DNA of 64,000 nt from a virus (IMGVR_UViG_3300028534_000024:1-64000); one strand, 5' to 3'; counted from the first letter of the stretch, positions 1-62,558 are shown. Made by a program: numbers and translations. Notes: a model not told the origin generated them from the letters alone.

Positions 1-8
1 CATAGAAT

Positions 9-25
9 AAAAAAAAAAAAAAAAA
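9..25. repeat. poly(A)17 homopolymer tract
   Basis: Run of 17 A at window start, just beyond the terminator of the 62..1033 gene. Confidence 0.9.
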
Positions 26-50
26 TGATTGTAGGATTAGCCTATAAGCC

Positions 51-74
51 AAAGAGAGGGATTACCCCTCTTTT
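51..74 (-). terminator. Intrinsic terminator, possibly bidirectional
   Basis: AAAGAGAGGG-ATTA-CCCCTCTTTT hairpin overlapping the stop codon of 62..1033, A/T tracts on both sides. Confidence 0.65.
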
Positions 75-1033
75 GATGCATCAAGCTCCTTTTGAAGCTT
101 TTCTAGAAGCTCCTTCTTTTTAGCCTCCTCCTCTTTTTTATCCATAAGTGATTTTTGGTCTTTTAGATATTCAGCTTGCTCTTCAGCCGTTTTTCTCTTC
201 TTTAAAGCAGAACGGCTTATATACCCTTTATCCCAAAGCTTTAAAGCAAGTCTATATTGACTTAGGGTCAATCCCCAGTTTAACTGAAGTCTAGCCTCGT
301 ATGCCGATAAAATGACCTTCAATTCTGTAAAACTCTTTTCACTTTGAAGATGTTTTAGTAACTCTTGGGTATTCTCTTCACGACTGCCATTTAACCAACC
401 TTGCTCTCTTAATTCTACAATTTTTCTATTTAATAACACTTGAAGAGTATGCACTTGACTCTTAACATCAATTCCGAGAATTTTGCGTTTTTGTTTGGTT
501 ACATCTACTGTAACCTTTTGCTTGATGATGTGGTTATCATCATCAACACTTTGGAGAGATTTCTCCAACTCTTCCAATTTTTCAATCTCTTTTTGTTTCT
601 CACTCTCTAAATCACTAAGAGTTTGACGATATGCCTCCTCGTTTTTAATACGACGGTTGATTTTCTCAAACTCTTTGATGATAGAGTTTAACAAAGCCTT
701 GACAACTTCGCTCTCTTCATCATCAATAATCGACTGTATTTCAGTGATACAGTTAAGATTGTGATTGAAATCATCATTTGAGATTTCAAATCTACCTAAA
801 ATCAAATCCCTAAAATCGCTCTCAAGTTGTTTCTGCTCAGTAGCTAAAATATCAAGCTCAGCCTTAAGAGTTGTAATCTTAACCTTACTATCTTCTTTTT
901 TAATCTCTTCGTTTTTTGCTATTATAGCATCATTTTTAGAGATAATAGCATCTTTTTTCTCTTCATAAGACTTGAAAAAAGCCTTTAAAGATTTTATTTT
1001 TTGCTCCATTTTTTTTATTTGTGCATTTTGCAT
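62..1033 (-). CDS. Highly charged coiled-coil protein (323 aa), unknown function
   Basis: Long ORF rich in K/E/Q/L heptads; A-rich leader with AAGGA; terminator directly downstream. Confidence 0.8.
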   Translation of the reverse strand: MQNAQIKKMEQKIKSLKAFFKSYEEKKDAIISKNDAIIAKNEEIKKEDSKVKITTLKAELDILATEQKQLESDFRDLILGRFEISNDDFNHNLNCITEIQSIIDDEESEVVKALLNSIIKEFEKINRRIKNEEAYRQTLSDLESEKQKEIEKLEELEKSLQSVDDDNHIIKQKVTVDVTKQKRKILGIDVKSQVHTLQVLLNRKIVELREQGWLNGSREENTQELLKHLQSEKSFTELKVILSAYEARLQLNWGLTLSQYRLALKLWDKGYISRSALKKRKTAEEQAEYLKDQKSLMDKKEEEAKKKELLEKLQKELDASKEG

Positions 1034-1039
1034 AATTTT

Positions 1040-1965
1040 ATTCTTTATTTTTTTTTTTTTGTTATTCCTTAAAATAACATTTACATACTTTATAAATAAA
1101 GCATATAAATATCATCTTAGATACACTTAATACCTACATATTAAGTGTATCTTTACTTATTTAAGATTGTAGGCAATTATATCTCACCTTAAATTTTAAG
1201 AAGGTACTCACCTGTGTATTGCCCCACTTTTCTTTGGGTTTTCCCTACTCGTATCAAGTAGCATACTAAACAATCTATATTAAATAGATTGCTGTTCATC
1301 TTGCATACTGCTAATATACAAGGATAGGCTCTTCACCTATCACCCCTGATACAATTTAACATACATATTAAGTTATTCTTATTATAGTTTTTACCCTGTT
1401 CGTCCAAAATAGACTTACAGAAACTTTTTAAAATAACTTAACATTTTGTTGTTAATGAACCTGTGTTCATTTACTTATTCGTTGCTATATCGTTACTAAC
1501 ACTCAAAAAGAGTGTCTTCACATTAGCATTACATTTGTCTCGGATAGATACTCACTCAAACACTTACATACCCTTACATCGTTTTCAGTGTATAGCCTAC
1601 TCACTTATAAGAAACTTTTTTACACTCTTTAAATTATCAACATCGATTTACCCCTATACTAGTAAATCAACTCCTTTTTAAAGGAACACAAAAAGCTATG
1701 CTGTATATGTCCTGTTGTTTCATATCTACTTTTACTAAGCTTACTTATTAACTAATCCAACTGCTTTAACAGTGTCTAGCTAATAGAGGTAATTTAAGGT
1801 ATTACCACTTAGTCCTTAACAAAATAATAAGTAAATGAACACGAGCTATAAAAGCTCATACCGTATTATAGCCACTTACTCTTAATCTAACCTTATTCCA
1901 ACTCGAAATAAGGAAAAAAATAAGTGACCTAACACGGCTTTAGATAGGCTTGTTATCGTCTATCT
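1040..1965 (-). ncRNA. Candidate large structured non-coding RNA or leader (~900 nt)
   Basis: Consensus promoter upstream; no minus-strand ORF of 60 aa or more; many hairpins, nested helices with G-U pairs, and a perfect 17-bp long-range helix 1463-1479/1826-1842. Confidence 0.6.
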
Positions 1966-1971
1966 GATGCA

Positions 1972-2000
1972 ATTATAGCTACTTTTTAGATGTATGTCAA
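1972..2000 (-). promoter_or_regulatory. sigma70-type promoter TTGACA-N17-TATAAT
   Basis: Perfect consensus hexamers (tgtcaa 1995-2000, attata 1972-1977 on + strand). Confidence 0.85.
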
Positions 2001-2100
2001 GTCTTTTTAGTAATTTTTTCTAAAATTTTTTAATTTTTTATTCGTTACTTGCTTATGCTTACATTATATATAGCAAATCATCTGCTCAGATAAGCAAGTG

Positions 2101-2225
2101 TTTGCCCTGTGGGTTGCCCTGTCAGTTTGCCCTGTGGGTTGCCCTGTCAGTTTGCCCTGTGGGTTGCCCTGTCAGTTTGCCCTGTGGGTTGCCCTGTCAG
2201 TTTGCCCTGTGGGTTGCCCTATCAA
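2101..2225. repeat. Tandem array 5 x 25 bp (TTTGCCCTGTGGGTTGCCCTGTCAG), last copy diverged
   Basis: Read directly; each unit contains TTGCCCTGT twice; GC-rich in an AT-rich genome. Confidence 0.95.
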
Positions 2226-2229
2226 TCCA

Positions 2230-2295
2230 TCTTATGATGCCTTATTAGTTATTGTTATGTTACCCATTAAGCTAAACTAATAAGGCATCATAAGA
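2230..2295. repeat. Perfect 21-bp inverted repeat with 24-nt spacer
   Basis: TCTTATGATGCCTTATTAGTT (2230-2250) / AACTAATAAGGCATCATAAGA (2275-2295). Confidence 0.95.
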
Positions 2296-2299
2296 GTAG

Positions 2300-2425
2300 C
2301 TTATAGATGTACCACTGTTTATCTTATAGATGTACCACTGTTTATCTTATAGATGTACCACTGTTTATCTTATAGTTACCTATTAGTTTATCTTATAGTT
2401 ACCTATTAGTTTATCTTATAGTTAC
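2300..2425. repeat. Tandem array of 23-bp units (3 x CTTATAGATGTACCACTGTTTAT, 2 x CTTATAGTTACCTATTAGTTTAT, plus a partial)
   Basis: Read directly; constant TTTATCTTATAG core recurs every 23 bp. Confidence 0.95.
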
Positions 2426-2543
2426 TTTGAGTAACACCATAGCACCTTTGAGTTACTTTTATGTTTACTTTCAGGTGTCTTTAAGCTAACTTTTGGTAGA
2501 GGGGGTGGGGTCATATCTGTTACTTTTGTGTTGGCTTTTAGTA

Positions 2544-2727
2544 AACCTAACTTATACAAAACTGAATTTCGGGACTGCTTTTAGAATAAAAGAATAACTC
2601 AAGTGATGTATTTATGGATACTTATGGGATGTACTGTTATAGGTATATTCTATGGCCGTGTATAATAAGTAAAGCCATAACCTAACTTATACAAAACGGA
2701 ATTTTGGGACTGCTTTTAGAATAAAAG
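2544..2727. repeat. 49-bp direct repeat, two copies (2544-2592, 2679-2727), 2 mismatches
   Basis: AACCTAACTTATACAAAAC[T/G]GAATTT[C/T]GGGACTGCTTTTAGAATAAAAG. Confidence 0.9.
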
Positions 2728-2897
2728 GACATCTAAAGGGGTGTATTTGTGGGGGCTTAGGGGTTATATTTATGTACTTTTATAAGCATCTCAAGTGATG
2801 TATTTGTGAATACTTAGGGCATATACTTATAAGTAACATAAAGATACTTTCGTGATGTATTTAATGGTATTGATAAGGAAGAACCATAAGTTATGTT

Positions 2898-4703
2898 TTA
2901 TGGTTCATATATAGGCTTTGAAGGAAGTTTGAAGTGAGTGAAAAGAGGTTTTATATTAGGGGATACTTTCGTGATGTACTCATAAAGTGGTATATCTATC
3001 TCTTTAAGTGTTAAATGATTATAGATATGTATTGAGAAATCATTAAGTGAATCATCTGTTTGGTCTATGTAAATTGTATATATGTCCTTAAATGTCTGTG
3101 ATGTTTTGTATAGATAGTCGTACTTAGTTGTTGTTTTAACTTTATCTTTAAAAGTAGTAAGTTCATTTTCAAAAGACTCTAGTGATGTATCCATAAGAGT
3201 AAAAGGGTATACCATAGGAAACTTATTATGTTTCTTCGGTTTCCGATGTTGTAAATGGGAAACTATTGGTGATACCTTAAGTGTTATATGAGGACACTCT
3301 AGTGTTGTATCTTTGGAAAGTAATGTATTACATTTAGGGCATACTATTGCTAACTTAATTTCTCTATTTCTATCTGCTACTTCTGAGATTGTGCATTTAG
3401 GTATGACATTATCTCTTTTTAAAGATTGTTGAATATTATTTCTTAAGTCGTCATCTGGTATGAAATTAAGAACATTATGTTTATTAAAAAGCTTAGCATT
3501 AAATGCTCTCTCATAAAAGTGTGGTTTAGTTATTTTATGATATGTATAAGTGATATATTCATTGTTATCTTTATTAAAGAATGATTTATATTTTTCTTGT
3601 CCTTTTAAATGATCCTTATAGACTATCGTTGAAGTGATATTAGTCTTTGGATTAAAGAATGAATATTTCTTAGTTGGTGTATGAAATAATTTATTAAGTA
3701 CAACATTTAAGTTTGTTGATAAAAATAAAGGTAAGGATAAAAATACATTTCTTTTATCCTCAAGGGATGGATGTTTATCATAAACTTCATCGGTTAAGTA
3801 TGAGGATGAATAGTATGTTAATAATTTATTTGAAATCAAAGTATAAAGCTTACTTGTATGAAAATTAAACTTCTGATAAAGTGATGGTATATTAAGCTTA
3901 ATTGCTCCATACCCTGTCTCTACATACTTAAAGAATGGTAGTGAATGGTAATTCTTAAAAGGTAACTTTCGTGATGTACTATTAAGGTTATCTACTTCAC
4001 TTTGTGTTAATAAACATTTCGCTTCCCCATTAATTCCAGTATTGACTTCATCGATATTGCAGTTCGCTTGGATAGTTGTTGTAGGTAACTGTACCGATGT
4101 TTCTTTATCTTCCTCTTTAAGGTGTTTGGAGATATGAGTCTCAATATCCTTGAGAATGGCTTGTTCTGTTTTAGAAATCCGAAGTAACTCCTTATTGGTT
4201 GAGATATTAAAGTCATCGTCATGGTTATCTTTTAAGTTAGTATATCTTGTATCTTCGGGTTCATCATTTGATGGGTATCCCATAAGTTCATTTATGTGAC
4301 TATCAGATAAATATCGTGATGTATCTGTTATCATAACCATTGGTATAGATGGAAGTAATGTATGTTGTGTCTGGTCATGTATATCCTTAAGTTGTTTTAT
4401 ACTTAAGTTTAATATATGTGCAAGCACTTCTTGTGGTACTGTATAGTAGCAAGCATGGATCAGTGCTATTTCTGTGTCTGTTATTGCAGGTCTTAAATTG
4501 TCTTTTGTTAAATTAGGAGGTGATTTCCTTGTTTGTTTATTATTAAGTTTAACTTGTTCATACATTTGAGACGTAGGTAAATCAGCAGGTAATCCCTGAA
4601 AAGTACCTATCTCTTTAACTTGCCTTACTTTTTCCTGTTCTTCGTTATAGAACATATCAGATATGTATAAAGTATCGGATATAGTATTATTTTGTGTATC
4701 CAT
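2898..4703 (-). CDS. Unknown 601-aa protein with possible HTH segments and a CPKC...CPH zinc-ribbon motif
   Basis: Long ORF with AGGA RBS; motifs read by eye. Confidence 0.7.
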   Translation of the reverse strand: MDTQNNTISDTLYISDMFYNEEQEKVRQVKEIGTFQGLPADLPTSQMYEQVKLNNKQTRKSPPNLTKDNLRPAITDTEIALIHACYYTVPQEVLAHILNLSIKQLKDIHDQTQHTLLPSIPMVMITDTSRYLSDSHINELMGYPSNDEPEDTRYTNLKDNHDDDFNISTNKELLRISKTEQAILKDIETHISKHLKEEDKETSVQLPTTTIQANCNIDEVNTGINGEAKCLLTQSEVDNLNSTSRKLPFKNYHSLPFFKYVETGYGAIKLNIPSLYQKFNFHTSKLYTLISNKLLTYYSSSYLTDEVYDKHPSLEDKRNVFLSLPLFLSTNLNVVLNKLFHTPTKKYSFFNPKTNITSTIVYKDHLKGQEKYKSFFNKDNNEYITYTYHKITKPHFYERAFNAKLFNKHNVLNFIPDDDLRNNIQQSLKRDNVIPKCTISEVADRNREIKLAIVCPKCNTLLSKDTTLECPHITLKVSPIVSHLQHRKPKKHNKFPMVYPFTLMDTSLESFENELTTFKDKVKTTTKYDYLYKTSQTFKDIYTIYIDQTDDSLNDFSIHIYNHLTLKEIDIPLYEYITKVSPNIKPLFTHFKLPSKPIYEP

Positions 4704-4732
4704 ATGTATCCTCGTGTAGTTTAAATTATGTA

Positions 4733-5161
4733 TTATATATCATCTTTCAGTAGCTTTAAGAAATCTAAAATATCAAGTTTATATTCTTTATCAAATAATT
4801 TAAAATTAATAAGATTATCTTTATATGTTACCTCTAATATTTCAGCATAAATTGATTTTAAGAAATCAACATCATTTGTAGTTAAAAGTGTTGAATCTAT
4901 AAATGTTATGTCATACTGTGGTGATGTATTTATTGCTTCTGATATAGAAAAGACAAGTGGCTTTGTTAAGTTCTGTTCATTAACTATATCTACCATTAAA
5001 GAAGCAAGTTGTTCATCCTCAAACATATCTTCATATATCTTATCAATATTGTGATAGGTATCATTGAGGAAGTCTTTTGGATTTAGATATTGATGTATAT
5101 TTGAATTGTTAAGTATAATTGATGGGATATTCCCAAAGTCTGATTTTATTAAAATTATCAT
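4733..5161 (-). CDS. Hypothetical protein
   Basis: ORF with AAGGA RBS in the terminase operon. Confidence 0.7.
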   Translation of the reverse strand: MIILIKSDFGNIPSIILNNSNIHQYLNPKDFLNDTYHNIDKIYEDMFEDEQLASLMVDIVNEQNLTKPLVFSISEAINTSPQYDITFIDSTLLTTNDVDFLKSIYAEILEVTYKDNLINFKLFDKEYKLDILDFLKLLKDDI

Positions 5162-5261
5162 ATGTTTCCTTGTATTATTGTTGAATTAAATATTATAATT
5201 AGCTTGAAAGGAAATAAATGGATCCTTCAAGCGATTCTTGAGATGAAACCTATATGTATTC

Positions 5262-6704
5262 TTAAGTTTCATCTTCTAATTGCGTTTCAGGTAAGTTCCA
5301 GAAACGCTTAAGTGATGCAACCAAGTAACGGAATGCATGTGCTACATCATAGTGGTGACCTTTAACTCTCACAAAAGGGTCTCCTGATGAAGAAGCTGAA
5401 AGCTGTGATGCAACTGTTTCTTTAAATGCTAATGTTTCTAATTGTTCAATTAAAGTGTTGGAGTCAAATGGAATAAATATTAAATTATCTTTAAATAATT
5501 TATTAATATCATCAACTCCAGCTTTTATCTTATTAAATGCAGGTAGATTTTCTACATCATAATCATTAGCTAAATCAAATCTCGTTAAGGCTGCCGATGG
5601 GTCAATGTAAATAGCACCATCTGAGAAGTCTAATGTGATGTCATCGTGGTTTTCCCATTTATCGATCATAGAGGATAGGTTCTTAGCTATCTCATCTGTT
5701 GTCATTAAGTTAGAATGAAAGGTATCTAATATGAATAACTTATTCTCTATTATTGTGCCTACTACGAAAGCTGTACTATCCACTAACCCTACATCTACCC
5801 CTATAAATCCTTGAAATGTTATTGATTTATCTAATTTCTTAAATAAATCTACTTGGTCATATAAATGTGTTTCTTTATTAAATCTAGGGAACACATTGGT
5901 CGCAGATGCGTGTATAAATTCACCCAAATATTCTGTCCTCCAAATATCAGGTTCAGTTGTCTTAATGATAGCATTAATTATATCTTCATTAACAAGTGGC
6001 GAATCATATATATTATAATTGTAGGATATATAACCATCTGGGGATATATATCCATCATTTCTTTCGTGCAGATGTCTTTCCATAATAGGAGGTAGTCCTT
6101 TAAGATAGTCTTTATGGAAGTCTGATCCAATAGTACGAGGTGATGACACTTTGATAACCTTAGAGACAAACTGTTTGGTATCCTCGTAAGTACCATAGTC
6201 AATCCTCATCGGGAGAAGTGCTTGTTCCATAAAGTCAGCATAGTTGAACGTCCCCGCCTCATCCACTAGTAGTAGAGAACTTTTCGCCCCGAGCAAGTTC
6301 TCTGTTTGGGAATTAACTGCACATCTTAGATGTGATTGTCCTATAGTTAATGAATATGTATTAGAATTTATTTTATCTGGTTTAATTCCTAGTAATCTTA
6401 AATTCTTAACGATCTCATTGAAGTTAGCTGTTAAGGATTTTGATGATTTAGATACTAATATTACTGAACTATATGGTTTAAGTAATTCAAAACATACTAT
6501 AATAGAAATAGTGAATGTCTTTCCTGATCTACGAGATGCACATAGTGTCATATAAGACCACTGATCCAGTCTCTCATCAAAATCTCTTATAATAGATTGC
6601 TGCATTGGTGTAGGTGTAACATCTAAGGCATTAAATAATTTACCTAATGCCACAAGTGATGATGCTTCTCTATATTGTTGCGTTTCTTTATTAATAATTT
6701 TCAA
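5262..6704 (-). CDS. terL: Terminase large subunit (TTG start)
   Basis: Walker A ASRRSGKT, Walker B LLLVDEAG, coupling motif VSSP, RNase H-like GVDVGLVDST and terminal HYDVAHAFRY. Confidence 0.92.
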   Translation of the reverse strand: MKIINKETQQYREASSLVALGKLFNALDVTPTPMQQSIIRDFDERLDQWSYMTLCASRRSGKTFTISIIVCFELLKPYSSVILVSKSSKSLTANFNEIVKNLRLLGIKPDKINSNTYSLTIGQSHLRCAVNSQTENLLGAKSSLLLVDEAGTFNYADFMEQALLPMRIDYGTYEDTKQFVSKVIKVSSPRTIGSDFHKDYLKGLPPIMERHLHERNDGYISPDGYISYNYNIYDSPLVNEDIINAIIKTTEPDIWRTEYLGEFIHASATNVFPRFNKETHLYDQVDLFKKLDKSITFQGFIGVDVGLVDSTAFVVGTIIENKLFILDTFHSNLMTTDEIAKNLSSMIDKWENHDDITLDFSDGAIYIDPSAALTRFDLANDYDVENLPAFNKIKAGVDDINKLFKDNLIFIPFDSNTLIEQLETLAFKETVASQLSASSSGDPFVRVKGHHYDVAHAFRYLVASLKRFWNLPETQLEDET

Positions 6705-8718: not shown

Positions 8719-10119
8719 ATGCTTATGGGATTATTTTCAAAAAAGAAAGAAGAGCCTGAAGTTAATGAATATATAGATGATGTTACAGGTATAGCATCTA
8801 TAAGAATTGGTAGCGAATATAGTTCTAGAATGGTTAAACATCTACAAGATGGGGATACAACTCAACCTAAAGGAGTTAATGATACTAAAATAAATGATAC
8901 ATACTTAACAAGTGATTTAGTACATAAATGTATAGAATATCTAGCTACTACAGTATCTCAAGTAAGATTCAGTGTTAAACAAAAAGGCAAAGATACCAAC
9001 TTACTTGAGCCAATTAAAGATAAAAAATTAGCACTTATGTTTGATACTGCACCTAATCCTTATCAGACGTGGGGGGAGTTATTATACATAGATACTTTAG
9101 CTACTCAACTTACAGGTAACTCTTATATAACATTTGAAAAAGTAAAAGGTAAGTATGAAATGTGGGCTATAACTAACCCACAAGAAATGGAAGTAATTGT
9201 TAATGAGACTGAGGGTACCGTTATAGGATATAAATATAATAGTCTAATAGATTACTCTTATGATGAAATTATACATAATAGATTACCAATATTAGGAAAT
9301 AATTACTATGGTGCTTCCACTATTCAATCATTATTAGATCAGTTATTTTTAGAGGGATATGGTACACAGGATTTAATTGAGTTCTATAAAAATAGTCTAG
9401 TTAGTACATCTATATTAACTAGTGAACAGCCATTAACTAAAAAACAAGCAAAAGATTTAACTGAAACCTTAGGAAAAGATTATAATATATCTAAAGGTAT
9501 GAGACACTCACTTATTGTATTACCTAATAATTTATCTGTTAAACCTCTTAAAATGAACCCTAAAGAAGCTATGTTATTAGATTCATTAAATATATCAGAA
9601 GATAGGGTATTATCTGCTTTTAAATTACATAAAATGGTATTAGGTGGTAAAATAGAGACTTATACACATAATATAGATGACTTACTACAACTTCAATTCA
9701 CTAATGCTATACGCCCTATTATAAATAGGGTAGTAGATAAGATACAATCATTCTTAAGAAGAGTAACTAAGAATGATAAATTAGTAATTGAAGTTGACTA
9801 TAGTTACTTACCTGAAGTTAAACTAGCTAAGTTGACTAATCAAGATACTGCAAGAAATCTATATGTGTCTGGATTGTGTTCACTTAATGAGGCTAGAGAA
9901 ATACTAGGGCTTCCTGCTATTGATGCAGAATTAGCTAATCAGAATCACCTACCTAGTTTCTTAGTTGGTACAGATCTACACACTATTCAGAATCTTACTC
10001 CAGAAGTAATAGATAAGATAAGGAATAGTGTAGATGGTACATCCACTAATAACGATACGATGAATACTGATATACTAGGTGGTGCTAATACAGGTAAACA
10101 AGATAAGATAGATGTTTAA
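8719..10119 (+). CDS. Portal protein, HK97 family (likely start 8725)
   Basis: VHKCIEYLATTVS, PNPYQTWGEL, LTGNSY, IIHNR and SLNEAREILGLP motifs; first gene of the head module. Confidence 0.92.
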   Translation: MLMGLFSKKKEEPEVNEYIDDVTGIASIRIGSEYSSRMVKHLQDGDTTQPKGVNDTKINDTYLTSDLVHKCIEYLATTVSQVRFSVKQKGKDTNLLEPIKDKKLALMFDTAPNPYQTWGELLYIDTLATQLTGNSYITFEKVKGKYEMWAITNPQEMEVIVNETEGTVIGYKYNSLIDYSYDEIIHNRLPILGNNYYGASTIQSLLDQLFLEGYGTQDLIEFYKNSLVSTSILTSEQPLTKKQAKDLTETLGKDYNISKGMRHSLIVLPNNLSVKPLKMNPKEAMLLDSLNISEDRVLSAFKLHKMVLGGKIETYTHNIDDLLQLQFTNAIRPIINRVVDKIQSFLRRVTKNDKLVIEVDYSYLPEVKLAKLTNQDTARNLYVSGLCSLNEAREILGLPAIDAELANQNHLPSFLVGTDLHTIQNLTPEVIDKIRNSVDGTSTNNDTMNTDILGGANTGKQDKIDV

Positions 10120-10142: not shown

Positions 10143-10721
10143 ATGGAAGAAACCATATATGATTTTGTCAAGCTTTCTGAGGTGGACACATCTCAGGAAG
10201 ATATTATAATAGTTAAAGGTTATGCTAATAAGTATAAGTGGAAAGGTAATGTTGAAGTTGATTCTTATGGTACAACTTTTGTCCCTACTGCATATGACTT
10301 AGAGGTATATAAACTTAACCCAGTTATTCTTTACATGCATGACATTACTCAACCTGTAGGTAAATGTCAAATAATAAAGATAACTGATGAAGGGCTTTAT
10401 ATTGAAGCTATAATTTATAAGTCGGTTAATGAGATGGTATTTAATGCTGTAAAAACAGGTATACTTAATGGATTCTCTATTGGAATACATATTAAGGCAG
10501 AGGAATATTCACAAGTACTAGATGCTTATGTTGTAACTGAAGGGGAATTGATTGAAATATCACTTGTAACAACACCATCAAATACTAAAAGTGTTATTGA
10601 AAATGTTGATTTATGTGAGTTAGGTGCTTGTCAAGTTTTAAGAAGTAGAAAAGATACTACAGCTAGAAATATTGATAAAGCTATGATTAGAGAAATGGTT
10701 AAGAAAGCCTTAAATCTATAA
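10143..10721 (+). CDS. Prohead maturation protease (HK97-type)
   Basis: KGYAN, LYMHD, GFSIG and EISLVTTPSN catalytic motifs. Confidence 0.92.
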   Translation: MEETIYDFVKLSEVDTSQEDIIIVKGYANKYKWKGNVEVDSYGTTFVPTAYDLEVYKLNPVILYMHDITQPVGKCQIIKITDEGLYIEAIIYKSVNEMVFNAVKTGILNGFSIGIHIKAEEYSQVLDAYVVTEGELIEISLVTTPSNTKSVIENVDLCELGACQVLRSRKDTTARNIDKAMIREMVKKALNL

Positions 10722-10739
10722 TATATTAAACTTGAAAGG

Positions 10740-11153
10740 ATGCACATGGAAAAAGAAGAAATATTTAATATAGTAAAAGAGGTAGTTGCTGAGCTTGTAC
10801 CACAGATTGAACCTCAAGAAGAACCTGAAGTTGAACCTGAAGTTGAACCTCAAGAAGAACCTCAAGAAGAACCTGAAGTTGAACCTGAAGTTGAACCTCA
10901 AGATGAACCTCAAGAAGAACCTGAAGTTGAACCTCAAGAAGAACCTGAAGTTGAACCTCAAGGAGAGCCAAAAAGTGACACTAATTCGGACGCCAAATCA
11001 TTTAATGATACCTTAACTTCTATTGAAAATAGTTTAGCAAATGATTCCGATGAACTAACAGAAGACGAAAAACAACTTATAGAATTTATTATGTTAAACT
11101 ATGATAAATTAGAAAGTAAGGTCGATAAATTAATTAATAATCAAGGAGATTAA
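10740..11153 (+). CDS. Acidic EPEV/EPQE-repeat protein, probable scaffold (likely start 10746)
   Basis: Lies between protease and capsid genes; low-complexity acidic linker plus helical C-terminus. Confidence 0.6.
   Translation: MHMEKEEIFNIVKEVVAELVPQIEPQEEPEVEPEVEPQEEPQEEPEVEPEVEPQDEPQEEPEVEPQEEPEVEPQGEPKSDTNSDAKSFNDTLTSIENSLANDSDELTEDEKQLIEFIMLNYDKLESKVDKLINNQGD
10805..10965 (+). repeat. 12-nt unit coding repeat (GAACCTGAAGTT / GAACCTCAAGAA)
   Basis: Read directly. Confidence 0.9.
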
Positions 11154-12326
11154 ATGGCTTTAGATACAATCAAAGCATTACAAGATAAAATCGCTGCTCT
11201 TGAAACAAGAATGGGCGAAATGTCAGAAAGAAAACCAAAAGGTGAAATTCAGAGACCTGAGATATCACAAAAAGAAGTAAGAAATAAGGCTTCTAATCTT
11301 TATCTATTATCTAGAATTAGAGATGTAGCTCCTCAAAGTCTTGCAACATACAATGATGTTAAAGAACTAGCAACTCGTGCTATGGTACCTGCGGACACAC
11401 CTGATTGGCTAGCAGAAGAGTTTAGTAAAGATATTTATGAAAGAATGTCTCTTATTGCTAATGTTGAGAGTCTATTCCCTAAATATACAATACCTAGTAA
11501 TGTAGAGGCACTTAGTATACCTCAAAAAACATCTAAAACAAAAGCTTATCTGATTCAGCCAGCAGCTGACGCTATTCAATCAGCTATTACTGCTGCTAAA
11601 GTAACATTTAGAGCTAAAAGATTGGTAACACTTGCTACTCTTACAGATCAAGCCGATGATGAAACAGTTGTAATGCTTACAGAAATGATTAAAAATGATA
11701 TAGCAGAATCACTTGTTCTTGCTATGGAAAATGCAATCATAAATGGAGATGAAACTGCTGGAGATACAAACATTAACGGTTCAACTGTAGGTAATGATGC
11801 AACTGATCAACTAAGAACATTTAATGGACTTAGAAAAATTACAATGGATAATGATAATACTGTTGACTTTGGTGGGGCATTAGATTATGCTACTATAGCA
11901 GGTATGAGAAAACTAATGGGTAAAGATGGTATTAACCAATCTGAACTTGTTTATATTGTATCGCCTTCAACTTATCATCAACTTGTTCTACTCCCAGAAG
12001 TATTAACAGTTGACAAATATGGCTCTAAGGCAACTGTTGTTACAGGTGAAGTAGCAAAAATAGGAGCAATTCCTGTTGTTGTATCAGAATTTGTACCAGA
12101 AGATTTGGATGCTACTGGTGTATATGCAGATGGTGGAGATAAGACAGTTATTATTCTTGCAAAAAGAAAATATTTCGCTGTAGCTGATAGAGGAATGGCT
12201 GGATTTGAAAGAGATAGAAATGTTATTTCTGCAACTAACATTTATGTTGGACATAGGGATGTAGATTTCAATCCACTTCTACCAGATAAGGAAATATCTG
12301 TTCTAGGATTCAATGTAGCTACTTAA
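11154..12326 (+). CDS. Major capsid protein, HK97 fold
   Basis: N-terminal coiled coil, EEFSKDIYE, AIINGD, YIVSPSTY..L, IPVVVSEFVP and GHRDVD motifs; position in head module. Confidence 0.9.
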   Translation: MALDTIKALQDKIAALETRMGEMSERKPKGEIQRPEISQKEVRNKASNLYLLSRIRDVAPQSLATYNDVKELATRAMVPADTPDWLAEEFSKDIYERMSLIANVESLFPKYTIPSNVEALSIPQKTSKTKAYLIQPAADAIQSAITAAKVTFRAKRLVTLATLTDQADDETVVMLTEMIKNDIAESLVLAMENAIINGDETAGDTNINGSTVGNDATDQLRTFNGLRKITMDNDNTVDFGGALDYATIAGMRKLMGKDGINQSELVYIVSPSTYHQLVLLPEVLTVDKYGSKATVVTGEVAKIGAIPVVVSEFVPEDLDATGVYADGGDKTVIILAKRKYFAVADRGMAGFERDRNVISATNIYVGHRDVDFNPLLPDKEISVLGFNVAT

Positions 12327-12335
12327 TAGTTACAC

Positions 12336-12353
12336 ATAGGGGATTACCCCTAT
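12336..12353 (+). terminator. Hairpin after the capsid gene
   Basis: ATAGGGG-ATTA-CCCCTAT. Confidence 0.55.
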
Positions 12354-12427
12354 GGATATTATATCCCTTATATTTGAATATACTTTATTTGTATATTCTA
12401 TATATTTAAATATAAAGGATTTAATAA

Positions 12428-12685
12428 ATGAAATATTTTATTACATATTTACTAAAAGGTGATTACAGATTAGGAACTAAGTTAGTTTGTAAATCTGGTA
12501 CACAAACTGAAGTATCTGAGGATATTTTTAATTACTTAAATAGTACTTTTGGTGATTCTGGATGGTTCACTTTTAAGAAAGAGAAAGAGTTTACAGAAGC
12601 TAAACCTAAAAAAACTAGAAAGAAAAAAGAAGAATCTATAGAAGAAGTAATTGATATAGATAAGTCACAAGACCTATCTGAATAA
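12428..12685 (+). CDS. Small head-module protein
   Basis: ORF with AAGGA RBS and basic KKTRKKK tail. Confidence 0.7.
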   Translation: MKYFITYLLKGDYRLGTKLVCKSGTQTEVSEDIFNYLNSTFGDSGWFTFKKEKEFTEAKPKKTRKKKEESIEEVIDIDKSQDLSE

Positions 12686-12702: not shown

Positions 12703-13881
12703 ATGATTGATAATAAAACAATCTATAGTGAACATCCTTTTTATAATCAATTTGTAAAGTGGAGTGGACTAGAACTTAATAGTGAAAACTACTTTATGAT
12801 AAATACAGCACTTTTCGGTGCTGAAGATTATATATCTCAGAGATTTGACATAAAACTTTCTCCTATTAATATCATAGAACACTTCGATACTAATACCCAC
12901 CCAAGATATAGAATAAGTAAACTTTTAAATGTTATGTCTAATACTTTATTATTACCATCAGTTAGGTATTATAATAAAACTACTAATGAGTATGAAAATG
13001 TAGATGGGCAATATTCATTTAATGATAGTTTAAATGTAACAGAAGATAGTACTATTACTTATTTAACTGGTTATATAGGAAAACAAGATATAACTTTCGA
13101 TGTTCAACCTAGTGGTACATTTGACAATAAAGCACCATTACAGCCATTGATATACTTTAATGATATACTAGTGGATACTCCTATTTATACATTAGAAGAT
13201 ACTATAGAGGTAGTTGTAGAGGGAGAAATAGGAAGTAACATTTATGTTAATGAAAAAAATACTACTATTAATATAGGCGATGATGGTACAGCTACTATAT
13301 CATTAAATATTAATAGTAGGATTACAACATATAGAATAACACTAGTAGATACTATGAATAATGTATCTGAGAGAAATAATATTCTTATTCTTAAACAGGA
13401 AAATCAGAATATCTTAAATTTGATACTTTTAGGTCAGGAGTTGGTTACTAACAATAATGAACTTAAAGTTTCTATTTATTTGTCTGAGAGTGGTAATTTG
13501 ATTATAAATGGATTAGATAAAGGTATGTACACTAAAGGAATTCACGAAATAATAGTAGATAATCTTGATGGTTCATACATTATACTTCAATTAGTTAATG
13601 ATAATAGAATATCTGATGATATCGTTATACCATACTCTATAGTAACATATGATGATAATTATGTCAAGGCAGTTAATAAACATCTCCTTGATATTCCGTA
13701 TATACCTATGGATTTATTAATAGCTTTCTTTAAGTTAACTCAGCACTTATACCATAGTACATTATATAAAGATGATAATATCGATAGGTACTCAGCAGGT
13801 ACATCAAAATCAATATCATTTACATCTCATAGAATACCTAAAGATATACTTGAAGTACTTAGTTTGTATATAGAATATTAA
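12703..13881 (+). CDS. Head-tail adaptor (gp6/gp15-like) with a large beta-rich insertion
   Basis: AEDYISQRF N-terminus and IPMDL...IPKDILEVL C-terminus typical of adaptors; position. Confidence 0.65.
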   Translation: MIDNKTIYSEHPFYNQFVKWSGLELNSENYFMINTALFGAEDYISQRFDIKLSPINIIEHFDTNTHPRYRISKLLNVMSNTLLLPSVRYYNKTTNEYENVDGQYSFNDSLNVTEDSTITYLTGYIGKQDITFDVQPSGTFDNKAPLQPLIYFNDILVDTPIYTLEDTIEVVVEGEIGSNIYVNEKNTTINIGDDGTATISLNINSRITTYRITLVDTMNNVSERNNILILKQENQNILNLILLGQELVTNNNELKVSIYLSESGNLIINGLDKGMYTKGIHEIIVDNLDGSYIILQLVNDNRISDDIVIPYSIVTYDDNYVKAVNKHLLDIPYIPMDLLIAFFKLTQHLYHSTLYKDDNIDRYSAGTSKSISFTSHRIPKDILEVLSLYIEY

Positions 13882-62206: not shown

Positions 62207-62236
62207 ATTATATCATAGTAGATATAAATTTGTCAA
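62207..62236 (-). promoter_or_regulatory. sigma70-type promoter TTGACA-N18-TATAAT
   Basis: Consensus hexamers. Confidence 0.75.
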
Positions 62237-62268: not shown

Positions 62269-62558
62269 GAAAGGTTTTACCCCTAAGGCAACCTATGATA
62301 CCTAAATGAAAAGAAAAGCCTTTTAAGATACCATTATGTTGCTTTAAATGGTATATCTTGTCAGAAAACTTTATATAATAATATAAATTAATTTCAATTT
62401 TCTTTTGTTACAAAAGTTTCCTGAAAATACTATATAAATTTCAAGAAATTTACATTTTACTCTTGACAAATCTTTAATAGTGTGGTATAATATCAGTCTG
62501 AACCGAAAGGTTCCCAATATATAGACCGTAGGTCTTAGCTTATAAGATAACTATATAG
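62269..62558 (+). repeat. ~290-bp dispersed repeat, copy D (inverted)
   Basis: Reverse complement of copies B/C; promoter 62463-62491 points right. Confidence 0.92.

Follow-up and report, generated by a model that had tools for sequence, protein, structure and literature searches.

A predicted large structured RNA, of a family new to catalogued sequences, beside the repeat arrays of a distantly T5-like phage

The window analysed here is the first 64 kb (64,000 nt) of a 73,349-nt virus record in IMG/VR, from an uncultivated phage that is distantly T5-like. It encodes the small and large terminase, portal and major capsid proteins. The nearest cultured relatives of its large terminase (TerL) are T5-like phages, at only 23–25% identity, and the small terminase of its relatives matches the Pfam family T5_Terminase_small. 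An ARAGORN scan detected no tRNA gene or tmRNA in the 64-kb window. A 601-aa ORF ends at 2898 and a 323-aa ORF starts at 1033; the 1.86 kb separating them form a non-coding block, in which no ORF was found with code 11, code 4, TAG=Q or TAA=Q. Its upstream half contains arrays of tandem repeats, together with an inverted repeat of 21 bp that is perfect. A repeat search placed these at 2100–2421, with no strand assigned: five copies of a 25-bp unit, the inverted repeat, and five copies of a 23-bp unit. Further dispersed repeats lie near the arrays, and the orphan 601-aa ORF adjoins them; its product matched no PHROG or Pfam family, and its best Atlas match had a TM score of 0.24, on a poor model. 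The downstream half of the block is the element described here, for which an earlier note on this DNA had proposed a large RNA read from the minus strand.

The gene beyond the element (62–1033, minus strand) encodes the 323-aa protein, which was modelled as all-helical (pLDDT 84) and matched no PHROG or Pfam family, Atlas entry or PDB fold. A terminator scan found its intrinsic terminator at 55–71 on the minus strand, where 51–74 had been claimed. The 85 nt preceding its start codon (1034–1118, minus strand) form an AT-rich cassette, which combines a TGTTATC-N7-GATAACA-type palindrome with a ribosome-binding site. This cassette is part of the gene and not of the RNA, and it recurs before at least four other ORFs, both in the genome of this phage and in relatives. 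Copies upstream of other ORFs lie at 73208–73294 in G000, and, in the metagenomic relatives introduced below, at 13305–13385 in L009 and at 2544–2605 and 4270–4350 in L010. The sequence suggests that one class of genes shares the cassette as an operator or as a unit of translational control.

A sigma-70 consensus promoter, TTGACA-N17-TATAAT, lies at 1972–2000 on the minus strand and points into the element, with an inferred start at ~1965–1968. It scored 12/12, so that its description as perfect held. Its hexamers, their spacing and the A/T-rich surroundings are conserved in L009 and L010. It is among eight perfect consensus promoters in the window. The other seven (TTGACA-N17/18-TATAAT) are at 62236, 44614, 34416, 34300, 8423 and 8249 on the minus strand and at 62463 on the plus strand. 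Most of them have a hairpin within ~10 nt downstream; a GAACC-GAAA-GGTTC hairpin follows four of the seven. Since seven more perfect promoters are present, mostly with a 5′ hairpin, the promoter of the element is of the standard strong type of this phage. Transcription of the RNA is predicted from the promoter consensus.

Downstream of the promoter lie ~930 nt, of which the proposed minus-strand RNA takes up ~850 nt. The earlier note's statement that no minus-strand ORF of at least 60 aa lies between 1034 and 2000 proved correct for code 11, code 4, TAG=Q and TAA=Q. No small ORF conserved across the window, L009 and L010 was found, and the conserved core has indels of 1–2 nt at no fewer than eight sites. 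Because these indels break the frame and no ORF is conserved, a coding function is excluded.

The element was recovered in two metagenomic relatives, found through homologues of the 323-aa protein: L009, a 76-kb JGI contig, and L010, whose sequence recurs in L011 and L017. In an alignment of the three sequences (A2), the core, from the promoter to ~1240, is 91% identical to L009 and 79% identical to L010. The core is followed by a 3′ module and then by a conserved hairpin (1119–1152 in the window). Scans of IMG/VR seeded with the 323-aa, 601-aa and TerL proteins gave no further homologues; the TerL profile returned one locus only, already known, and a DNA pattern search of IMG/VR gave 0 matches. 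The same kind of pattern search in JGI metagenomes gave seven matches, of which only that in L017, the same contig as L011, was real. A pattern and TerL-profile search of GTDB genomes gave 0 matches, and these genomes therefore offer no clue to the host. No match to the element was found among cultured phages by blastn. The predicted RNA family is thus narrowly distributed.

The proposal of an RNA had been held open to refutation by dinucleotide-shuffled controls, and the minus strand folded well beyond them. The minimum free energy of 1034–1966 was −271.3 kcal/mol on the minus strand, compared with −188.1 ± 7.5 kcal/mol for the shuffles (z −11.0); on the plus strand the values were −182.6 and −139.5 kcal/mol (z −5.9). 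When the first 17 kb were scanned coarsely with windows of 450 nt, coding DNA had z values mostly between +2 and −4, and three of the four windows covering 451–2250 were among those with the largest energy excesses. Similar excesses were reached at 10801–11250 and 12151–12600. Values of z below −5 were obtained, with only eight shuffles per window, at 451–900, at 10801–11250 (minus strand) and at 12151–12600.

All of the individual pairings listed in the earlier note recur in the minimum-free-energy fold: the helices 1960–1965/1942–1947, 1930–1938/1860–1868, 1922–1928/1871–1877 and 1368–1377/1432–1441, the hairpins at 1891–1913, 1843–1857, 1499–1515, 1323–1341 and 1271–1291, and the 14-bp stem at 1119–1152. 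The perfect 17-bp pairing of 1826–1842 with 1463–1479 and the 14-bp palindrome were also recovered by the repeat search.

Selection on the pairing was assessed with the two relatives, in which compensatory changes had been proposed as a check. To avoid circularity, the structure was predicted from one sequence alone and the substitutions of another were permuted among stem columns, with 2000 permutations. From the window to L009, 24 pairs were broken where 37.3 were expected, and pairing survived in 11 of the 14 double changes, compared with an expectation of 2.0; 0 of the 2000 permutations did as well. From the window to L010, 40 pairs were broken against 59.7 expected, and pairing was kept in 13 of 23 double changes against 5.3 expected (P = 0.0025). 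The reciprocal tests, with structures taken from the relatives, agreed. Compensatory changes are therefore present in both homologues. The power of this covariation is modest, since only three distinct sequences, all close relatives, are available, and the identity of 96–97% between the window and L009 in the upstream genes limits it further. Hairpin-sized indels also occur in the alignment.

These tests bear on the reading of the region as coding sequence in decay, or as a structure that arose by chance and has no function. The very narrow distribution, and the lability of the locus among relatives described below, speak for it. However, the z of −11 argues against it, as do the broken pairs, significantly fewer than under permutation, and the compensations, significantly more numerous, and so does the conservation of the core: its divergence is 9% to L009 and 21% to L010, compared with 23% and 40% at the four-fold sites of the neighbouring 323-aa gene. 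We regard a functionless sequence as highly improbable.

The direction of the fold is marked by G-U pairs. In an RNAalifold consensus the sense alignment reached −190 kcal/mol and its reverse complement −107.5 kcal/mol. Canonical pairs filled 756 of 790 pair-cells, including 130 G-U cells, compared with 635 of 790 when the same pairs were read on the complement. The claim that G-U pairs in the element work only on the minus strand is thereby supported. The same observation weighs on a second reading, in which the region is a DNA-level element (palindromes serving as an injection-stop, packaging or cruciform signal) and its RNA fold is incidental. The model for such an element is the T5 injection-stop signal (iss), a ~1.8-kb non-coding stretch with many repeats and palindromes (bioRxiv 10.64898/2026.04.02.716235). 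The 1.86-kb block is likewise non-coding and rich in repeats and palindromes, and the 17-bp and 14-bp repeats are perfect Watson–Crick pairs in the window. Strand symmetry, which palindromes should show, nevertheless fails for 1119–1965 (−271 vs. −183 kcal/mol, with 130 minus-only G-U cells). Read on the opposite strand, those 130 cells turn into A-C mismatches; the long-range helix and terminal hairpin of L010 use G-U pairs; no RNA fold of this order is seen in the T5 iss region (z −1.2 and −2.6); and the consensus promoter points into the region. A DNA-level element is therefore very unlikely as an account of the downstream half. The likeness to the T5 iss is limited to the arrays at 2100–2900 of the non-coding block, and these arrays, rather than the RNA, may be its counterpart.

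The conserved domains of the predicted RNA cover ~720 nt, from 1968 to ~1240; all parts given below are on the minus strand. At the predicted start lies a 5′-terminal hairpin (1942–1965), which is present in the minimum-free-energy fold. The sequence of L010 is wholly different there and the hairpin is still formed, with three double compensations. Domain 1 (1860–1938) is a long irregular helix with several G-U pairs that encloses the hairpin at 1891–1913. Its pairs are all kept in the three sequences, except for one cell of one pair, and the changes in it fit G-U pairing on the minus strand only. A short hairpin at 1843–1857 follows, formed by three different stems in the three sequences: GAGCU/AGCUC in the window, GGCUU/AAGCC in L009 and GACUUC/GAGGUC in L010.

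Domain 2 (1463–1842) is multi-branched, spans ~380 nt and is closed by the 17-bp helix 1826–1842/1463–1479. This long-range duplex is kept in the relatives, with energies of −22.6 kcal/mol in the window, −18.6 kcal/mol in L009 and −16.6 kcal/mol in L010. An extra hairpin at ~1747–1786 is specific to the window, and a 46-nt insertion in the window relative to L009 amounts to a self-contained closed hairpin. Domain 3a (1356–1455) is a long hairpin of 35 pairs and is the most conserved part of the RNA, with 94–100% of cells paired in each helix. Domain 3b (1249–1354) is a multi-helix junction bearing the hairpins at 1323–1341 and 1271–1291. In domain 3 as a whole (1246–1455), 96% of cells are paired, compared with 37–50% when the partners are slid by 1–3 columns, and five pairs are changed on both sides.

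The 3′ arm of the 17-bp helix can pair in another way. Within 1455–1479, which includes the arm that pairs with 1826–1842, a local hairpin can form at 1455–1471 (AAUGAAC/GUUCAUU), with energies of −7.2 kcal/mol in the window, −7.2 kcal/mol in L009 and −9.6 kcal/mol in L010. The two pairings are mutually exclusive and both are kept in the three sequences, in L010 through correlated changes, which suggests ordered folding or a switch. The sequence comparison thus suggests that the 17-bp helix and the hairpin at 1455–1471 are a candidate conformational switch.

Beyond the core lies a variable 3′ module (1153–1245). It covers about 190 nt in the alignment, where L009 and L010 are 93% identical to each other and the window is only 63–65% identical to them; this pattern points to replacement of the module. 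Divergence is mosaic on a larger scale too. In a comparison of the window with L009 covering 62–6704, nucleotide identity was 97% for TerL, 96% for the 601-aa gene, 91% for the RNA core and 82% for the 323-aa gene. Together with the replaced module, this mosaic divergence indicates recombination breakpoints in or near the RNA.

The module is followed by a terminal hairpin of 14–15 bp (1119–1152), whose 14-bp palindrome is perfect in the window. L009 shows three double compensations in it, and L010 has U-G and G-U pairs that are workable only on the minus strand. Each copy of the cassette is preceded by a different hairpin, in this case 1119–1152, and for this reason the 3′ end of the RNA was placed there. 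The hairpin is probably the 3′ end, as a stabiliser or a non-canonical terminator; in the terminator scan it was terminator-like only on the plus strand, and on the minus strand no U-run follows it. The extent of 1040–2000 that the earlier note had given to the RNA stood only in part: the promoter-to-~1240 core is conserved, whereas 1153–1245 is swappable and 1034–1118 is the separate cassette of the next gene.

No canonical intrinsic terminator was found on the minus strand between the promoter and the 323-aa ORF, in agreement with what had been noticed before, and read-through into the 323-aa gene is therefore possible. This raises the alternative that the element is a long structured 5′ leader, a cis-regulatory RNA of an operon starting with the 323-aa gene, that controls the read-through, stability or translation of downstream early genes.

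More distant relatives bear on this alternative. The contig L005 (TerL 74% identical) has the same layout: a large ORF is followed by repeat arrays and then by a consensus promoter that is perfect. Behind the promoter it has a different, predicted RNA of 420 nt (5231–5685) that is ORF-free and cannot be aligned with the element. This RNA folds with a z of −9.6 in sense and −5.5 in antisense and ends in a clean intrinsic terminator. L005 shares only a 26-nt motif with the window. A (GGCTGT)×9 array lies upstream of the 420-nt RNA. In L007 (TerL 51%) the fold is weaker (z −6.1 in sense), and a possible small ORF was noticed on reading the sequence that was not called by the gene caller. In L024 (TerL 47%) a 220-nt leader and a 57-aa ORF occupy the same position. 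The presence of a different 420-nt RNA, or of a leader and ORF, in distant relatives indicates that the element is evolutionarily labile. As the promoter keeps its position across the clade and the contents behind it differ, the promoter position is old and the large RNA is a young, labile occupant.

A leader is suggested by the common orientation of the RNA and the 323-aa gene with no canonical minus-strand terminator between promoter and ORF, by the equivalent promoter of L024, which drives its leader straight into the 57-aa ORF, and by the switch-like look of the two exclusive, conserved pairings. Nevertheless, ~850 nt is far above the length of known leaders. The 323-aa ORF has its own repeated cassette, and immediately ahead of that cassette the RNA is closed by a hairpin that is both stable and conserved. 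Between the RNA and the 323-aa gene, L009 and L010 have an additional 200–630 nt, with one to three small ORFs that the window lacks there, and the L005 analogue ends in its own terminator. We consider a leader rather unlikely. One of the intervening ORFs, situated between the cassette and the 323-aa gene, encodes a conserved 28-aa peptide (…YGNISISELG.ILKHR) at 9807–9893 in L009 and ~1117–1203 in L010, and is absent from the window. A different hairpin lies ahead of each cassette copy in these sequences as well.

The suggestion of the earlier note that the RNA acts with the co-transcribed 323-aa protein fares poorly in the light of the repeated cassette, the intervening ORFs and the absence of a family or fold match. 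The 323-aa gene appears to be a neighbour with its own control cassette and not an obligatory partner, and its link to the RNA is weak.

The arrays upstream of the promoter invite a further alternative, in which the RNA is part of a replication origin and the strong promoter yields a structured primer or R-loop RNA, comparable to ColE1 RNA II or T4 oriF/oriG. ColE1 RNA II is a structured primer of ~550 nt. The 25-bp array, the 21-bp inverted repeat, the 23-bp array and the dispersed repeats lie directly upstream, and the orphan 601-aa protein is encoded next to these iteron-like arrays. However, no initiator, primase or RNase H site was identified at the locus, and the 601-aa protein matched neither a family nor a fold. 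A conserved fold of 720 nt is not something that an R-loop origin needs. As for the arrays, they might just as well mark a terminus, or serve for packaging or as a T5-like injection-stop signal (bioRxiv 10.64898/2026.04.02.716235). An origin RNA is therefore unlikely. Metagenomic contigs of relatives repeatedly end inside the repeat arrays that separate the large ORF from the promoter (3′ ends of L004, L020 and L021; 5′ ends of L010 and L011), and every contig with a 601-aa homologue breaks off in the repeat arrays. These stops may reflect assembly breakage at tandem repeats or a physical genome terminus.

The element was compared with known RNAs. Rfam 15, which includes GOLLD, ROOL, OLE, raiA, HEARO, introns, RNase P and tmRNA, gave no match in the whole window at gathering thresholds. 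At E values up to 10, the first 3000 nt (1–3000) gave only four weak, unrelated hits. The earlier note had been unable to assign the RNA to a known family and had proposed an Rfam search as a check; its judgement holds. With no match to a catalogued family, the element joins the small group of large phage RNAs without known function.

The closest likeness in setting is to rnaX of T5 (T5s08; NC_005859 40848–41566, complement), a 719-nt RNA annotated as ‘stable RNA with unknown functions’. It lies behind promoter P16-17 and directly before tRNA-Arg; RNAX is conserved in hundreds of T5-like phages, and tRNA-Arg directly follows it in T5, DT57C and others. Like the element, it is ORF-free, ~0.7–0.9 kb long, preceded by a strong sigma-70-type promoter and carried by a virulent siphovirus with a T5-like terminase, and both have a multi-domain fold with a long perfect hairpin at the 3′ end. 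Unlike the element, RNAX has a tRNA-like domain: ARAGORN called a tRNA in three of seven RNAX sequences and none in the element. RNAX also lies in a tRNA cluster, whereas the element lies beside repeat arrays, downstream of terminase genes.

Searches in both directions were negative. An nhmmer profile of the seven RNAX sequences found nothing in the window, L009, L010, L005, L007 or L024 at E values up to 10, and the element's own profile found nothing in the seven RNAX loci, while the nhmmer positive controls scored 1e-134 to 1e-216. The covariance models R1 and R2 gave no link between the element and RNAX in either direction. Model R2, built on the 5′ 200 nt of RNAX, which hold its tRNA-like domain, detected T5 and DT57C at 1e-52 to 1e-53; its best match in the window had an E value of 8.8 and lay outside the element. 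Across the RNAX profile and covariance tests, the positive controls reached 1e-45 or better. These tests show no homology of the element to RNAX, and the resemblance is one of kind only. That a T5-like virulent phage carries an RNA unrelated to RNAX suggests that such phages have acquired large stable RNAs repeatedly.

Two further groups of phage RNAs offer parallels. GOLLD (RF01998) and ROOL (RF03087) form RNA-only homo-oligomers, as seen by cryo-EM (PMC12286853). They too are large (~600–800 nt), intricately folded and phage-borne, and are abundantly transcribed in the cases studied. The element differs in that it has no Rfam match and does not lie next to tRNAs. An RNA of ~800 nt that lacks an ORF is the phage transcript found in greatest abundance for the Vibrio phage ICP1 (PMC7567579); it is located between gp139 and gp140 in a ~1-kb gap of a virulent phage without tRNAs (PMC7567579). 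ICP1 belongs to a phage lineage unrelated to that of the window, and its RNA has no sequence similarity to the element.

We conclude that the region is probably, on the strength of its promoter, fold and compensatory changes, a free-standing, promoter-driven gene for a large structured non-coding RNA. The proposal of a new large structured RNA on the minus strand is borne out by the stability of the fold, the compensations and the absence of both an ORF and an Rfam match, and the predicted RNA is a real, new family of large phage RNA, unrelated in sequence to known ones. In such a gene, host RNA polymerase would start at ~1965 from the consensus sigma-70 promoter. The transcript would fold into a protective 5′ hairpin, three conserved domains and a swappable 3′ module, and would end at, or be trimmed to, the hairpin at 1119–1152, giving ~850 nt in all. 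By parallel with T5 RNAX, the ICP1 RNA, GOLLD and ROOL, we infer that the RNA may accumulate as a stable species early in infection and may act in trans as a scaffold, decoy or self-assembling particle. A bolder version, to which we give a small chance, is that of a giant RNA family expressed from the first promoter beside the repeat/terminus block and working as an early RNA machine with a helix switch; it might, for example, assemble itself into a particle, or divert RNases or the defences of the host as a decoy.

To our knowledge, large, elaborately folded RNAs of bacteria and phages are rare, and a function is known for almost none of them. Each sequence-unrelated family with compensatory support therefore widens the set available for the study of structure and function. 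The predicted RNA has a clean promoter, clear domain boundaries, a swappable 3′ module and the candidate helix switch, and these features make in vitro transcription for probing or cryo-EM feasible without the host.

Two other roles were considered and rejected. Complementarity of the element to the rest of the 73-kb genome, as would be needed for a trans-antisense RNA, is within chance (best match 14 nt, E 0.19). For a CsrB-like sponge, TAAGT(G) words occur 10 times against 2.4 expected, but no repeated loop motif was established. A folded stretch was also seen in T5 itself (L027): the minus-strand region at 10150–10935, a non-coding interval that separates the iss from gene T5.018, had a z of −5.9 on the T5.018 strand and −3.1 on the other.
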